Assembly: GCA_965214095.1 (NCBI GenBank)
Contig: OZ243938.1
Location: forward strand, 1,440,001-1,504,000
Source of the DNA: Candidatus Poribacteria bacterium
Lineage (GTDB): Bacteria; Poribacteria; WGA-4E; WGA-3G
DNA length: 64,000 nucleotides
Reading direction: 5' to 3'
Of the stretch, positions 11,413 through 62,240 are shown in pieces. Made by a program: the position numbers and the translations under genes. Within the stretch, counting starts at the first letter, position 1. Each line of letters begins with the position of its first letter. Below the pieces are notes generated by a model. It worked only from the letters and a program-made list of their open reading frames with translations. It made no database searches and had not been told where the DNA came from.

Positions 11413-11897
11413 TTGTCTGAACCAGGATTTCCAGGTTTATGTATCTGAAGTTTCAAGCTGCTCATCTAAAGATAGACATAGGTGTCAACTTAGTGGAAAA
11501 TTACGTTCAAATAACTCGGTATTCGTAGGCGCACTTTGTAAGCGCGCTGAATCATAGAAACATTACTGTCAATTATACACGCCACTGTAGGAGCGATCTC
11601 CGAATCTCGATTTAACTCAGTCACAGTCGGGAATCGAAGTTTACTTCTACATATCCAAAATGTCTAATTTATTCAAGAATCTGCCATATATAAGTTAGAG
11701 CGATAGCTCCAGCGGGGCGGAATGTGTATAGAAGCGTCGTCCAACCTAACGGATTTCACACTACGGTAGGTTCGGTTTCCTAACCGAACCGCTGTTTGTT
11801 CAGTCGCATAGATGCGGTTCGGAAACCACATCTACCAGAGAGTGTGCACATATTTTTACATTTCACCATAAAATCTTATAGGTAGCAACTTGAGTTA
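11413..11897. repeat. Intergenic cluster of fragments from several REP/MITE families
   Basis: M6 left end 11413, IS4-type end 11477, GTAG hairpins ~11525 and ~11587, CCAGCGGGGCG ~11709, partial M1, M4 right end ~11880. Confidence 0.7.
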
Positions 11898-14490: not shown

Positions 14491-15429
14491 TTAATTGTCA
14501 CGCAATTTTTTGATTATTGCTTTGGGTAGCGGTGCAGACCCGGATGTAGCGACACCGTCATCAACTTGGGCAGGTGTCATCATTCCTGGTGTAACACAAC
14601 AAACTGCGCGATGTGCCAAAATGAATTTGAGTGCAGCTTGTGGTAGACTTTTCGCTTTTCCTCGGACAACTGATTTTATCTGTTCAACTCTCTCTAAATC
14701 TGCAAGGAACTTTTCACGGGGCCATGTCTTCCGATAATCGTTATCAGCAAATAAGGTATCCACATTGAGTTTACCAGACAGCAACCCTGATGACAAAGGC
14801 TGGCGAACAGTTACGGCAATACCTTTTGCTGCGGCTGTTTCCATCACAGGTTTTGCCATCCCTTGATTTAGGATGTTGTAGGTGAGCATGAGCGATGAAA
14901 TACCTGTTTCTTCAATTGCTTTGAGTGCTTGCGCTTCGTTTCCAAGACACAATCCATAGAAGCGGATTTTTCCTTCAGACTTGAGTTCAGCCATTGTGCC
15001 AAATGCTTCATCCCATATCTCTTCAGGTGGAGGGGCATGAAATTGATAGATGTCTAATACATCTCTTTTCAATCGTGTGAGACTTCCCTCAACAGATTGA
15101 CGAATATATTCACGCGAAGCATTGAATGCAGGCACCTTGCCACCTTGACTTATCCACCCATCGGAGTCCAATTCATATCCGAGTTTCGTTGCAATGACAA
15201 CCCTATTACCGAGTGCTGAAAACGCGTTACCTAAAAGTTTTTCAGCGCGTCCACCCCCGTATTGGTCAGCGGTATCGTAATAGGTGACACCTTTTTCAAA
15301 AGCGTATCGTAGGAGATCCACGGCTTCCTTTTCACCGATGTCTCCCCATTCGCGTCCTCCGAGTTCCCAGGTTCCCATACCGATCTCGGAGACGGTCAAA
15401 CCCGTTTTACCAAACTTACGCTGTCGCAT
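14491..15429 (-). CDS. Aldo/keto reductase
   Basis: VSEIGMGTW, YDTADQYG, IATKLG and SLTRLKRDVLDIYQFH motifs. Confidence 0.92.
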   Translation of the reverse strand: MRQRKFGKTGLTVSEIGMGTWELGGREWGDIGEKEAVDLLRYAFEKGVTYYDTADQYGGGRAEKLLGNAFSALGNRVVIATKLGYELDSDGWISQGGKVPAFNASREYIRQSVEGSLTRLKRDVLDIYQFHAPPPEEIWDEAFGTMAELKSEGKIRFYGLCLGNEAQALKAIEETGISSLMLTYNILNQGMAKPVMETAAAKGIAVTVRQPLSSGLLSGKLNVDTLFADNDYRKTWPREKFLADLERVEQIKSVVRGKAKSLPQAALKFILAHRAVCCVTPGMMTPAQVDDGVATSGSAPLPKAIIKKLRDN

Positions 15430-15553
15430 ATTGTCCCTCCAGATGGTCTTATGAGAATTTTATATGTTCTTTGTTTTTTTGTCAACAATTTCTTTTTAGT
15501 GATTACGCGACTACAAGCATGAATGTCCGAGGCGCAATGAATTGGGCGGATTC

Positions 15554-15708
15554 TTGTTTGAACCAGGTTTTTCAGGATTGACAAGACAAGAGTTTGAAAC
15601 ATCAAAGTGCCATCCAGAGAATAAACGTTAAACTGGGAATAGGAACTTTGCAGAGCCAAACTCATAATCCTGAAAATCTACTAATCCTGAAAATCCTGGT
15701 TCAGACAA
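15554..15708. mobile_element. MITE-like family M6 (TTGTCTGAACCAGG...CCTGGTTCAGACAA)
   Basis: Terminal inverted repeats with internal AATCCTGAA-like repeats; full copy at 52641-52830, fragments at ~21631-21693 and 11413. Confidence 0.75.
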
Positions 15709-15896
15709 ATAGCAATACAAATCCATAATTAAGTTAACGTTTGGGAATAATATTGAACAAAAATCCTAAAACTAATGGTTTATCTACTTTTATTTTAAGG
15801 GTAATATGATCGTAGGGGCGAGGTCATGAAGATTAATTTATTAAACGGGTAATACTCATTTACCCAAACCCGGTAGGTGCGGTTTCCTAACCGCAC

Positions 15897-17384
15897 CATA
15901 GGCGTCAATTTAAGGATGCACCAAGACCGATAAGTGTCAACTTTTAATCAGAGGAAGTATAAATTATGAAATAAAACTTCTGTAAAAATGAAAACACCTC
16001 ATATATAATGTAGATATAGATTTATTATGGTCTACAAAGAGGTGTTTCCTAATGAATACATTATCACAAGTTCCCAAAGAAATGCAACATATTCTTACAA
16101 CTATAGCCAATGATGCAGCTCTCAATACAGGTTTTGTCAAAAGAAGTTGTAAACTCAACGGTAGTCGTTTTGCTCAAATACTCATTTGGACTTGGTTAGA
16201 AAACCCAGATGCCACCTATACACAACTTGCGCAAACCGCTGGTGTGCTGGGGATTTCAATCTCACGACAAGCCATTGAACAACGATTTACATCTGAAGCA
16301 GCAGAGACCCTGAAAGTTATCCTTGATGCTACTGCGTCCAAGGTTATTTCTGCCGACCCGCAAACGCTTCCGCTCCTTGAAAAGTTCACTGGTGTCTATT
16401 TACAAGATAGTTCTTGGATTACACTCCCTGATGTGCTCCACGAAACTTGGGAAGGTGGAAGCAAAAAGAATAAACCGAACACAGCTGCCGTGAAACTCCA
16501 CCTGCGTTTTGATAGTGCCACAGGCACTTTTGAACACTTTGAACTGACCAATGGTATCACCGCTGATAGTGCTATTGAAAAGCAGATTGACATGCTACCC
16601 GCCGGCAGTTTGCGCCTCGCAGACCTCGGCTATTATTCACTTGATACCTTCAAAAGACTTTCCGATGCAAACGTCTTTTGGATATCACGCTACAAAGTCC
16701 AGTGTTTTCTCTATGATGAAACAGGTGACCCTTTTTGTTTGCTAAAATGGCTCAAGAAGGGTTCTAATAACTTCAAGGACAAACAAATCTTTATAGGTAA
16801 AAACAAGCGTCTCAAAGCACGATTAGTTGTTCAAAGACTTTCAGAAACAGAAACCCAACAGCGTATTAAGGAGATAAAACATCGTGCAAAGCGGAAGTAT
16901 ACGAAACCTTCACCAAAACGACTTCAGCTCGCAAGATGGAATATCTACATTACTAATATAAAAGTAGACCATCTGACTGCTGAACAGATTTGTGCTGTCG
17001 CACGCATCCGATGGCAGGTTGAGTTGATGTTCAAGTGCTTCAAAAGCATTGGAAAAGTTGATACCTCCCGTAGCGACAAGCCATATAGAATCTTATGTGA
17101 GTTATATGCAAAACTCATCGTCGCAATTATGCGGCACTGGATCATGTTAAGGGTCGGTTGGCGATGTCTAAAACATAGTCTAACAAAAACAGCAGAACTT
17201 ATTAGCACCTTCGCACGCACACTTGCAATAGGTTTCCGCAAGTCTATAATGTCTTTTCGGCAAACTTTTGATGAAATAAAACACGCTTTCCAAAATGGGT
17301 GCTACATTGAGAGACGTGCTAATAGAGACACAACATTAGAACACCTTGAAAATGCAGCAAAAAATCACTAAATTGACGCTTATG
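15897..17384 (+). mobile_element. IS4-family insertion sequence, 1488 bp, 16-bp TIRs, 20-bp flanking direct repeat
   Basis: TIRs CATAGGCGTCAATTTA / TAAATTGACGCTTATG; GTGCGGTTTCCTAACCGCAC on both sides. Confidence 0.9.
16052..17371 (+). CDS. IS4-family DDE transposase
   Basis: LQDSSWI, LADLGYY and RWQVELMFKCFK (YREK-like, with Y replaced by A); stop codon lies inside the right TIR. Confidence 0.92.
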   Translation: MNTLSQVPKEMQHILTTIANDAALNTGFVKRSCKLNGSRFAQILIWTWLENPDATYTQLAQTAGVLGISISRQAIEQRFTSEAAETLKVILDATASKVISADPQTLPLLEKFTGVYLQDSSWITLPDVLHETWEGGSKKNKPNTAAVKLHLRFDSATGTFEHFELTNGITADSAIEKQIDMLPAGSLRLADLGYYSLDTFKRLSDANVFWISRYKVQCFLYDETGDPFCLLKWLKKGSNNFKDKQIFIGKNKRLKARLVVQRLSETETQQRIKEIKHRAKRKYTKPSPKRLQLARWNIYITNIKVDHLTAEQICAVARIRWQVELMFKCFKSIGKVDTSRSDKPYRILCELYAKLIVAIMRHWIMLRVGWRCLKHSLTKTAELISTFARTLAIGFRKSIMSFRQTFDEIKHAFQNGCYIERRANRDTTLEHLENAAKNH

Positions 17385-17625
17385 GTGCGGTTTCCTAACC
17401 GCACCGGACTTCTCAAGGAAATTACCCAATTTATTTCTTAATCCTCATCACCTCGCCCTCTTCCAAATTACATAACCGTAATTTTAGAATGGACACTCCA
17501 CTAAATATCCCTGCCATATACGATGCTCAACAATTAGATTGACATGTTGAACGTGTTCTGATAGGATATTGTTATGCAATTTAAGTGTTTTGGAAGATTA
17601 AATACGTTCGATTTTAGGGACAAGT

Positions 17626-18666
17626 ATGAAATTATTGGTCACGGGTGGAGCAGGATTTATCGGGACGAACTTTATTAGATACTGGCTCAAGGAGTATCCA
17701 AATGATGATATAGTGAACCTTGATTTGTTGACTTATGCGGGAAATCTCGCCAATCTGACAGATATTGTATTAGCTTATACAGATCGGTATGTGTTTGTGC
17801 ATGGTGATATTTGTGATGATACATTCGTATCGGAAGTAATGGAGACACATCAACCTGATGTGATTGTCAACTTCGCGGCGGAATCGCATAATAGTCGTGC
17901 TATATTGTACCCGCGTGTATTCTCAGAAACAAATGTGATGGGAACACAAGTATTATTAGATGCTGCCCGTCAATACGATGTGTCTCGGTTTCATCATATT
18001 TCTACATGTGAGGTATACGGTGAACTTCCCTTGCATTCATCTGATGCGTTTTCAGAAACAGCCGCTTACCGACCACAAACCCCTTACAACGCATCAAAAG
18101 CAGCTGCCGATCATCTCGTCAACGCATACTTCCACAGTTTCGGACTTCCGATTACTATCTCTAACTGTTCCAATAATTATGGACCTTATCAGCATCCGGA
18201 GAAACTGATCCCGCTTTTTACGACGAATGCCATCCAAGATTTGCCATTGACACTCTATCGGAGCAGTCATAACCGCAGAGAATGGTTGCATGTTGATGAC
18301 CACTGCAGTGCGATTGCATCGGTTATTCACAACGGTAAGCTTGGAGAGACCTATAATGTCGGTAGTGGCGTTGAGAAAAGTATAGAGGAAATAAGCGATT
18401 TTATATTGGATGTGTTGGATAAGCCGCAAGACTTGAAAACTTATGTTCCCGACAGACCTGGACACGATTGCCGTTATCTGTTGAATTCCCAAAAAATAGC
18501 ACGTGAACTCGGTTGGCAACCAACAATACCGTTTGAAGAAGGCATGCGAAAAACAATTGCGTGGTACGTTGAAAATCGTGAATGGTGGGAAAAAATCCGC
18601 AAAAAACCTGACACAGAAAACGTTAAAGAGGATAAATGGGAGAAGTTCTCACAGCAAAAGAGGTGA
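17626..18666 (+). CDS. rfbB: dTDP-glucose 4,6-dehydratase
   Basis: VTGGAGFIG, LTYAGN, FAAESH, YNASK, NCSNNYGPYQHPEKLIP and DRPGHD motifs. Confidence 0.92.
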   Translation: MKLLVTGGAGFIGTNFIRYWLKEYPNDDIVNLDLLTYAGNLANLTDIVLAYTDRYVFVHGDICDDTFVSEVMETHQPDVIVNFAAESHNSRAILYPRVFSETNVMGTQVLLDAARQYDVSRFHHISTCEVYGELPLHSSDAFSETAAYRPQTPYNASKAAADHLVNAYFHSFGLPITISNCSNNYGPYQHPEKLIPLFTTNAIQDLPLTLYRSSHNRREWLHVDDHCSAIASVIHNGKLGETYNVGSGVEKSIEEISDFILDVLDKPQDLKTYVPDRPGHDCRYLLNSQKIARELGWQPTIPFEEGMRKTIAWYVENREWWEKIRKKPDTENVKEDKWEKFSQQKR

Positions 18667-25225: not shown

Positions 25226-25510
25226 CATAGGCGTTTTCCCCAGGCAGGTAGGTTCGGTTTCCTAACCGAACCTTATGTGTCAATTTAGTGCAAATTAGGC
25301 GTTTTCCCCAGGCCGGTAGGTTCGGTTTCCTAACCGAACCATAGGTGTCAATTTAGTGTAAATTAGGCGTTTCCCCAGGCCGGTAGGTTCGGTTTCCTAA
25401 CCGAACCGGATCCTATACGAGAACCTCTATAAAGGTATTTGGCGCAAACTCGGTTCGGTTAGGAAACCGAACCTACCGCTACTTGGAAGGACGCTAAATT
25501 GACGCTTATG
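25226..25510. mobile_element. 171-bp IS4-ended MITE (25340-25510) preceded by two extra tandem left-end units (~68-bp period)
   Basis: IS4-type ends at 25226, 25272, 25340 and 25495-25510; three direct REP-A hairpins plus one inverted; reverse complement of 52263-52433. Confidence 0.85.
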
Positions 25511-36702: not shown

Positions 36703-37033
36703 CCAAAACAATGATGTGTGAAGATTTTGTACAAATACATTAGCATCAATTTAAGGAGAATTACGCGTTATTCCCGTGACGGTAGGTTCGGTTTCCTAAC
36801 CGAACCAGATCTTCCGCTGCCTCTTATCGTAGTGAGATGTAAGTGCAAAAAACTTGACACAACCCTAAATAATATCAACTTGACATTGGGCAAAATGCAT
36901 GTTAAAATTACATCAATAGACTACACAAATAAAAATATTGAACCTTTTTTGATTAAATCAGTCAAACATATTAAATAGCATAGTCTGAATGTAAAATAAT
37001 GCGTCTCTTGCACGATGGAATAAGGAGAAGAAT

Positions 37034-52069: not shown

Positions 52070-52262
52070 GCCGCTTCCTTCCAACAGAGATGGTGGATTT
52101 CTTATGTGTCCATGATACTCTTATTCTTGTTGTTTGTCAATGATGTTTGTAACTCTGGCAGGGTTATTTATAGTAAAGTTTAGAATTAAGAAGACATTTC
52201 AATGTGCTTGTTTCAAAATGAGCAGCCCCAGCGGGGCGACAGGTGTATAGAAAAATGTACCC

Positions 52263-52433
52263 CACAAGCGTCAATTTAGCATCCTTCCAAGTACCGGTAG
52301 GTTCGGTTTCCTAACCGAACCGTATTTGTGCCAAATACCTTTATAGAGGTTCTCGCACAGGTTCCGTGCGGTTAGGAAACCGCACCTACCGGCCTGGGGA
52401 AAACGCCTAATTTACACTAAATTGACGCCTATG
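52263..52433. mobile_element. 171-bp IS4-ended MITE with an internal inverted REP-A pair; 20-bp flanking direct repeat (18/20)
   Basis: Ends CACAAGCGTCAATTTA/TAAATTGACGCCTATG; flanks GTGTATAGAAAAATGTACCC and GTGTATAGAAAACTGTGCCC. Confidence 0.88.
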
Positions 52434-52640
52434 GTGTATAGAAAACTGTGCCCCGACCAATGCAAGTCCCAGCGGGGCAGCATGCGCGTGTGGCATGCTG
52501 CATGAGGTGTATCATTGAAGAAATAGATATGATGACTGTGATACTCCTTGTCCAGAGCACTGTTCAAGTCCTCAAAAAACTGTCCAAACTATAGTAAAGT
52601 TAAGAGGCTGGATCGAACTCGTCACTGGATTTATTGATTC

Positions 52641-61787: not shown

Positions 61788-62240
61788 TATAGTGAATTAT
61801 AAATATAAGTTGACACTTTCGACCCACGGTAGGCGAGGTTTCCTAACCTCGCCGATGCAGAGTGTTCAAGTAATTTCAAAATCTACTATAATAATACCAT
61901 CTCTAATAAAGAATATACCAATAAAGAAATAACTGGTTCGTAGTCGCGCAATTCATTGCGCCTCTTACATTTATGGTGAAGTATGAAATTATATCTACAC
62001 TTTCTTTCTACGGTAGGTGAGGTTTCCTAACCTCACCTTATGCATCAATTTAAGGGGAATTACGCTATAATCCCAGACCGGTAGGTTCGGTTTCCTAACC
62101 AAACCATATCCTACGCGAAAACCTTTATGAACGCCATTGGCACAAATCCGGTCCGGTTAGGAAACCGAACCTACCGGCTTGGGTGTTAACTTTCAGTAAA
62201 TCTCTGTTTTGGAAAATACTTAAAACTAAATAACCCTGTC
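61788..62240. repeat. Nested repeat cluster: M2, M3 left part with REP-C, partial M2, IS4-type end after a REP-A hairpin, REP-A pair
   Basis: M2 61788-61890; TACCATCTCTAA at 61895; GTGAGG hairpin 62017-62036 directly followed by CTTATGCATCAATTTA. Confidence 0.75.

Follow-up and report, generated by a model that had tools for sequence, protein, structure and literature searches.

A poribacterial IS231-like insertion sequence with a 20-bp target-site duplication that often copies a whole REP hairpin

The length of the target-site duplication that flanks an insertion sequence (IS) is treated as a hallmark of its family and is taken to reflect the geometry of the transpososome. For the IS4 family, Table 1 of PMC2266710 gives duplications of 7–13 bp across all seven subgroups, and the same paper divides IS4 and related elements between a 'one helical turn' class and a 'half a turn' class. 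Here, we analyze a 64,000-nt stretch of Candidatus Poribacteria DNA (assembly GCA_965214095.1, contig OZ243938.1, positions 1,440,001 to 1,504,000 of the forward strand; henceforth termed the window), in which an IS of 1488 bp lies between two perfect copies of a 20-bp palindrome. A preliminary description of the window, made from the sequence alone, had proposed that this IS4-type element duplicates ca. 20 bp of its target and thereby copies an entire hairpin of the repetitive extragenic palindrome (REP) type; the range of about 8–13 bp that it gave for IS4-family duplications is close to the published one. The locus raises the question of what the palindrome is: a duplicated target, a part of the element, or a repeat that was present in tandem before the element arrived. 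The window lies in the 5.2-Mb chromosome (C1, 41% GC) of a genome that is 94.5% complete (henceforth G000). The following features make up the element and its flanks, with positions given in window coordinates.

15877..15896, plus strand: left copy of the duplicated 20-bp target, consisting of an entire REP hairpin (8-bp stem, TCCT loop) with GGTAG before it
15897..17384, plus strand: insertion sequence of 1488 bp with CAT...ATG termini, one of 13 genomic copies that are 98.4–100% identical
15897..15912, plus strand: left terminal inverted repeat (TIR) CATAGGCGTCAATTTA, fitting the IS231-subgroup end consensus CAT-------AA--TAA
16052..17371, plus strand: transposase gene, 439 aa, with D119, D191 and E324; A317-R320-E324-K331 replaces YREK; Tn5-like predicted fold
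17369..17384, minus strand: right TIR TAAATTGACGCTTATG, 15/16 identical to the left one and overlapping the transposase stop codon
17385..17404, plus strand: right copy of the duplicated 20-bp target; the CGGA... after it is what normally stands 3' of the REP

The 20-mer GTGCGGTTTCCTAACCGCAC occurs at 15877–15896 and again at 17385–17404 with 20/20 identity and directly adjoins CATAGGCGTCAATTTA and its inverted partner TAAATTGACGCTTATG, just as the preliminary description had reported. Because the loop reads TCCT in both flanking hairpins, i.e., in the same orientation, the pair is a direct and not an inverted repeat. The element also splits the REP context: GGTAG stands 5' of the left hairpin only, and CGGA..., which is likewise the 3' context of uninterrupted hairpins, stands 3' of the right hairpin only. 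Together, loop orientation and split context favor a duplication over a palindromic terminus of the element itself. Within the window, the hairpin pattern (≤3 mismatches) has 19 matches versus 0 in 100 shuffles, and the TIR pattern has 10 matches versus a shuffle mean of 0.59.

The flanks of all genomic copies were tabulated, a check that the preliminary description had suggested. The chromosome contains 13 IS copies of 1487–1488 bp, each with an intact open reading frame (ORF), and exact 20-bp direct repeats adjoin the CAT...ATG termini in every one of them. Ten of these repeats are REP hairpins, while the other three are unique, unrelated, non-palindromic 20-bp sites (GGTATGATTATATAACGCAC, GTGTTGATGTGCCTAGTACC and GAGAGCATTAGCATATTCAC). 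For the three non-REP targets, the left flank and the right flank were mapped independently to orthologous loci in congeneric genomes. In 14/14 such loci, the 20-mer is present once and the flanks are contiguous with an overlap of exactly 20 bp. Since these empty sites carry the 20-mer once, the duplication is real, and we consider it settled that the 20-bp flanking repeat is a true target-site duplication. The stagger of ca. 20 bp put forward in the preliminary description is thus borne out by 13/13 copies, 14/14 empty sites, and 21/33 of the miniature inverted-repeat transposable elements (MITEs) described below.

We also searched the Logan contigs of four public runs with window positions 15300–18000 for an empty allele or a circle junction of the window copy. 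The contigs are broken at the repeats and none joins 15876 to 17405; all joints are short-sided (≤30 nt) with extra letters, as is typical of repeats elsewhere. The IS contig reaches a depth of ca. 11–13 times that of the flanks in two of the runs, a ratio that does not equal copy number. Two of the chromosomal copies, at C1 3639488–3640974 and 4265783–4267269, form a subfamily of 1487 bp that is 98.4% identical to the window copy, contains an ORF of 447 aa instead of 439 aa, and has CATAAG at both ends. Another copy, at C1 2742881–2744368, and the window IS (15877–17404) are located in paralogous copies of one ~70-bp repeat unit (…ATTTACCCAAACCCGGTAG-hairpin-CGGACTTCTCAAGGAAATTACCCAA), with the two ISs in opposite orientation.

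Insertion is precise to the nucleotide with respect to the hairpin. Among 215 TIR matches, the hairpin fills exactly the 20 nt outside the terminus in 87 and is offset by -1 in one, with no case at any other offset between -4 and +4. The chromosome harbors 551 hairpins (≤3 mismatches), of which 473 are preceded by GGTAG, and their stems include the compensatory variants GTT..AAC, GTG..CAC, ATG..CAT, and GAG..CTC. Although hairpins account for 0.21% of the chromosome, they are the targets of 10/13 IS copies (binomial P = 5e-25), and an element end adjoins 75/436 of the G..C-ended variants versus 1/91 of the A..T-ended ones (Fisher p = 4.8e-6); both values are generous, since the hairpin copies are non-independent, each insertion yielding two abutting copies. 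The direction is clear: target choice depends on the terminal bases, and a stable hairpin alone is insufficient. Twelve 20-bp sites are of the non-REP type, meaning that they do not match the main-hairpin pattern, with a few of them being degenerate or different hairpins. Here, position 1 is G in ten, G or T occupies position 2 in 11 sites and position 3 in all 12, and position 20 is C in ten, which fits the GT(G/T)...(C/A)AC preference of the preliminary description. A bias in insertion orientation is not claimed: nine of the ten ISs in REPs point the same way with respect to the hairpin, and the termini of all TIRs divide into 45 with TCCT, 35 with AGGA, and seven others.

A stagger of this length extends throughout the clade. 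Searching one-per-species genomes with a profile of 15 transposases returned 227 relatives, and the 80 best (48–90% identity), all from Candidatus Poribacteria, were examined as loci numbered with the prefix L. Their ends were fixed at CAT...ATG, and both ends were found in 78/80 loci. Exact flanking repeats are present in 47 of these 78 and measure 18 bp (4 loci), 19 bp (23), or 20 bp (20). Ten of the 47 lie outside the two recognised hairpin families, e.g., GTGACAAAATCTTTACACAC (L003) and GGATGGGGCAACAGACACC (L032). One clade of relatives makes an 18-bp duplication, and a second hairpin family, GTCGGGT...ACCCGAC, is the target in more distant clades, where the cut falls 4 nt inside the stem (GGT...ACC). 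A single element type in OX638352 duplicates 20 bp on hairpins with a 4-nt loop (L044–46) and 19 bp on a hairpin with a 3-nt loop (L048). Similarly, in OZ244616 the 20-bp targets (L027, L034, L036, L037) yield 20-bp duplications and the 19-bp targets (L028, L030) yield 19-bp ones. At L040, the cut falls 1 nt inside a 20-bp target and results in a 19-bp duplication. The length following the target, together with the inside cut at L040, points to a stagger of 18–20 bp that can shift by about one base.

The nearest annotated relatives from outside Poribacteria are located on two Chloroflexota plasmids (34–36% identity, CAT ends). The copy in Herpetosiphon pHAU01 has an exact repeat of 19 bp and the one in Ca. 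Chlorohelix an exact repeat of 20 bp; apart from one fragment, each plasmid record contains a single full copy. A further set of loci, L088–L092, carries no information on duplication length: the Clostridium relatives (26–28% identity, L089–L091) are single copies at which a flanking repeat of >3 bp was not found, our script did not find the TIR at L092, and an IS231B copy (L088) has inverted rather than direct flanks.

The transposase identifies the clade as a variant within the IS4/IS231 kind. Its single 439-aa ORF (16052–17371) fills the element and scores 80.5 bits against Pfam DDE_Tnp_1 (PF01609) and 195.9 bits against NCBIfam IS4_1 (NF033592, 'IS4 family transposase', cut-off 115). D119, D191, R320, E324, and K331 are invariant in 58/58 clade members, and the D-D-E spacings of 71 and 132 fall within the D(60~110)D(100~150)E pattern of the IS4 family, whose transposases are likewise encoded by a single ORF without frameshift. 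An AlphaFold2 model based on a 58-sequence alignment (pLDDT 79.9, pTM 0.73) suggests an RNase H-like catalytic core in a Tn5-type architecture: its five top PDB matches in Foldseek are all Tn5 transposase (E 1.1e-10 to 1.7e-8, TM 0.43–0.46). When the 15-sequence profile was run against the sequences of solved structures, only chance matches came up (ABCG2, E 0.5). Tn5 (IS50), the best structural match of the predicted model, nevertheless differs in having only 13–14% sequence identity and, according to the table of PMC2266710, a duplication of 8–9 bp in the IS50 subgroup.

The closest named kin is IS231 of the Bacillus cereus group, which also belongs to the IS4 family. Both have a single-ORF DDE transposase, with 27% identity to IS231B over 390 aa (E 3e-44), and both have CAT ends; CATAGGCGTCAATTTAAGGA fits every conserved position of the subgroup consensus CAT-------AA--TAA--- and is identical to the IS231B end at 14/20 positions. 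IS231A, too, prefers a symmetric G-rich...C-rich target, and a single element can differ by ±1 in the length that it duplicates. On the other hand, the IS231 duplication tabulated in PMC2266710 is 10–12 bp versus 18–20 bp here, the protein of the present clade is ~40 aa shorter, and it is hosted by Poribacteria and Chloroflexota, as opposed to Firmicutes for IS231. IS231 also has the tyrosine of the Y-(2)-R-(3)-E-(6)-K signature, whereas A or V takes this position in 49/58 members of our clade (A 27, V 22, Y 4, other 5). A317 aligns with the tyrosine of the annotated IS231B transposase; the preliminary description was therefore right to read A in place of Y, and the change is a clade trait. 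PMC2266710 takes as family hallmarks of IS4 a YREK motif that is complete and a duplication spanning about one helical turn. The IS231 subgroup contains many transposase pairs with >50% identity and is nearly confined to the B. cereus group. Neither the duplication (20 bp here, 18–20 bp in relatives) nor the YREK motif conforms to these hallmarks, and the subgroup's closeness is likewise missing, the 80 best of the 227 relatives being poribacterial. The clade is thus not a plain IS4 member, although its ends, predicted fold, and catalytic core are IS231-like.

Very probably, these data describe an active element of the IS4 superfamily that is IS231-like, joins its ends 20 bp apart, duplicates those 20 bp, and prefers a weakly symmetric G...C site. 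The DDE transposase would attach the CAT...ATG termini to phosphates on the two target strands that lie 20 bp, or ca. two helical turns, from one another, and gap repair would then generate the duplication. Compared with a spacing of ~10 bp, the attacked phosphates would be in roughly the same angular relation but about one turn further apart. The preferred target may be described as a weakly symmetric sequence of 18–20 bp, opening with G(T/G)(G/T) and closing with (A/C)AC. The 20-bp REP hairpin, GT(G/T)CGG..CCG(C/A)AC, would supply this target exactly, which would explain why most insertions duplicate the whole hairpin. The same enzyme presumably mobilises the ~171-bp MITEs, which carry two such hairpins. 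Family knowledge further suggests a dimeric Tn5-like transpososome, cut-and-paste chemistry, and recognition of the target as ordinary B-form duplex.

Several observations, in addition to the overstated significance of the binomial and Fisher values, weigh against this account. Among the 78 relatives' loci, 31 lack an exact repeat; 14 of these have 18–20 bp with 1–4 mismatches and 17 have none. A flanking repeat at ≤2 mismatches is also missing from 12/33 MITEs. In a few loci (e.g., L010, L018, L049), the flanking hairpins have opposite loop orientation, as an inverted-repeat reading predicts. The repeat-less and opposite-loop loci are the main data at odds with a simple picture. At L052/L053 and L051/L071 (CBDAUH010000004.1), the flanks are swapped between IS copies, matching across and not within copies, which indicates inversion or recombination between them. 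In our reading, recombination between copies would likewise account for the opposite-loop loci and some of the repeat-less ones.

The alternative that survives best is that the REP is captured by its structure, as an extruded hairpin or cruciform, with the ends joined at the stem base so that the hairpin itself sets the duplication length. Such a mechanism would fit the duplication of the whole hairpin for REP1 and the way in which duplication tracks target length within one element type in OX638352 and OZ244616. It does not, however, account for the non-palindromic sites that also yield 19–20 bp (three IS copies and 10 relatives' sites classed 'other'), for the avoidance of equally stable A..T-ended hairpins, or for cuts inside the target, which fall 4 nt into the stem for the second hairpin family and 1 nt into the 20-bp target of L040. 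Strand transfer is indifferent to the palindromic nature of the site, and we regard structure-directed capture as improbable.

A second possibility is that the hairpin belongs to the element as an extended palindromic terminus, with a true duplication that is short or absent. The stem being its own inverted repeat, 16/20 positions fit an inverted-repeat reading, and the few relatives with opposite loops on their two sides would agree with it as well; yet the loops are in direct orientation in 10/10 REP-borne copies, and GGTAG is found on one side only. The three copies without a hairpin but with unrelated 20-bp repeats, as well as the 14/14 empty sites, refute this interpretation, for which we see practically no room. 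Insertion between pre-existing tandem hairpins, or site-specific recombination at REPs, without any duplication being made, could draw on the clustering of REP hairpins and on tandem 'arm + hairpin' units at 25226–25406, but is to be dismissed with near certainty: the two flanking repeats match each other in all 13 copies despite the sequence variation among the genome's hairpins, uninterrupted paralogous MITEs hold one hairpin where the IS-bearing MITE holds two, the transposase is a DDE enzyme and not a recombinase, and for non-REP sites the empty-site loci refute it.

Having arrived at a 20-bp stagger with a preference for terminal G and C, we turn to the MITEs that share the ends of the IS. 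There are 56 innermost end pairs ≤2 kb apart; 13 are the IS, and 33 delimit elements of 165–176 bp with IS TIRs. These ~171-bp elements are short and non-coding and have TIRs and duplication in common with an autonomous IS of the same genome, as is characteristic of MITEs. In 21 of the 33, flanking repeats of 19–21 bp are found at ≤2 mismatches: exact 20 bp in 11, 20 bp with 1–2 mismatches in seven, exact 19 bp in two, and 21 bp with 2 mismatches in one. The body consists, in order, of an IS end, a short arm, a GGTAG-hairpin, a 45–47-nt centre, an inverted hairpin-CTACC, an arm, and the second IS end, so that each MITE contains two hairpins and thereby two potential targets. The window contains the following MITEs and remnants.

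25226..25510, no strand assigned: MITE with three tandem 'left arm + hairpin' copies and a single right end at 25495–25510
52243..52262, plus strand: left flanking repeat GTGTATAGAAAAATGTACCC of a MITE, within a second, non-hairpin repeat family
52263..52433, no strand assigned: 171-bp MITE with IS ends and an internal convergent REP hairpin pair at 52301–52320 and 52366–52385
52434..52453, plus strand: right flanking repeat GTGTATAGAAAACTGTGCCC of the same MITE, 18/20 identical to the left repeat
62017..62052, plus strand: hairpin (62017–62036), then a degenerate TIR-like end (62037–52, 3 mismatches)

The MITE at 52263 with its 18/20 direct repeat had been singled out in the preliminary description, as had the IS-type ends next to hairpins at 25272, 25340, and 62037, and all are present. 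The ends at 25272 and 25340 each adjoin a hairpin (25252–25271 and 25320–25339, respectively). They are part of an array at 25226–25406 with a period of 67–68 bp, in which the first unit has lost an internal segment between two TAGGCGT repeats. Nested insertion into the MITE's own hairpin, followed by deletion between the repeated centres, may have produced this array; similar arrays are located at C1 4990821–4991128 and 5165376–5165605. The feature at 62017–62052 is what remains of an insertion that used the same site relative to the hairpin. Solo TIR-like ends with 2–3 mismatches are seen at window positions 36738–36805 and 11477–11492; the one at 36738 has an arm and a GGTAG-hairpin but no partner end nearby, and both are half MITEs or decayed copies. 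The non-hairpin repeat family at 52263 (…CCAGCGGGGCG-ACAG-GTGTATAGAAAA-TGTGCCCCGAC…), which is distinct from the main hairpin, occurs at window positions 11700–11735, 52215–52262, and 52434–52485, and MITEs have hit it at the same position at three genome sites: C1 1492263 (window 52263), 4972884, and 3080288 (reverse).

Across the chromosome, 191/551 hairpins are physically joined to an end of an IS or MITE: 109 lie within a MITE arm, 71 adjoin a terminus, and 11 do both. With 551 copies, 170 convergent doublets, and a conserved 5' GTAG, this abundant short hairpin has the attributes of a REP. In the congeneric genome G002 (L134/L138, G002:C30 ~232841–233404), a 188-aa HUH gene resembling a REP-associated tyrosine transposase (RAYT) has two GTAG-hairpins on each side. 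One hairpin beside this gene is followed by CATA, i.e., an IS or MITE end. Homologues of the protein in other congeneric genomes (44–57% identity) are not flanked by this hairpin family. In the 94.5% complete G000, no homologue was found at E≤1e-5, and none of five Y1 genes is hairpin-flanked as in G002. Four of these encode near-identical Y1 (IS200-like) transposases of 141 aa (C1 81623, 2170036, 2385609, and 4230081; L083–L086), and at C1 2666075 (L087) a 108-aa ORF starts at the HUH motif. No main hairpin lies within 1.5 kb of L083–L087, except one 230 nt from L084.

That no REP-flanked RAYT was found in this genome leaves room for a bolder proposal, in which the strand-transfer sites of the transpososome would span two helical turns and, in addition, the IS/MITE system rather than a RAYT would now multiply the REP hairpin here. 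The second part builds on the observation that a REP hit by an element gains a hairpin and that each MITE brings two new targets. We advance the combined proposal tentatively and hold it to be rather doubtful.

REP targeting by insertion sequences was ascribed mainly to the IS3 and IS110 families in the preliminary description. This needs to be corrected, as it is also known inside the IS4 family: according to PMC1525189, all copies of ISRm22 (IS4Sa subgroup, Sinorhizobium meliloti) reside in REP palindromes. Unlike the present element, however, ISRm22 enters the palindrome at its axis and makes a repeat of 6 bp, splitting the REP instead of copying it whole (PMC1525189). Duplication length as a subgroup trait has a parallel in the IS1202 family, for which bioRxiv 10.1101/2022.12.17.520857 lists 27–28 bp in IS1202, 15–17 bp in ISTde1, and 5–6 bp in ISAba32; its transposase is unrelated, and only the short-repeat subgroup is site-specific, targeting XerCD sites. 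IS1634 and IS1549 are IS4 relatives with long direct repeats, judging from titles cited in PMC2266710, but by the same titles these repeats are long and variable, as opposed to the fixed 18–20 bp here, and the match of our transposase to NCBIfam IS1634 is weak (29 bits, below the cut-off of 100). A literature search, which did not extend to ISfinder or paper supplements, returned no paper on an 18–20-bp duplication in the IS4 family or on any Poribacteria insertion sequence.

As a natural clade of intact, multi-copy elements with duplications of 18, 19, or 20 bp versus 10–12 bp in their nearest named kin, these ISs provide a comparative system for what sets strand-transfer spacing in Tn5-like enzymes. 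They also represent one route by which hairpin repeats can be copied without a tyrosine transposase of their own, and they carry a warning for annotation, in that a palindrome flanking an IS may be a duplication and not a part of the element. Beside the chromosome, the assembly of G000 includes contig C2 (32,066 bp), which differs in GC content (64% versus 41%), has no terminal-repeat match, and is possibly a foreign replicon or a binning contaminant.

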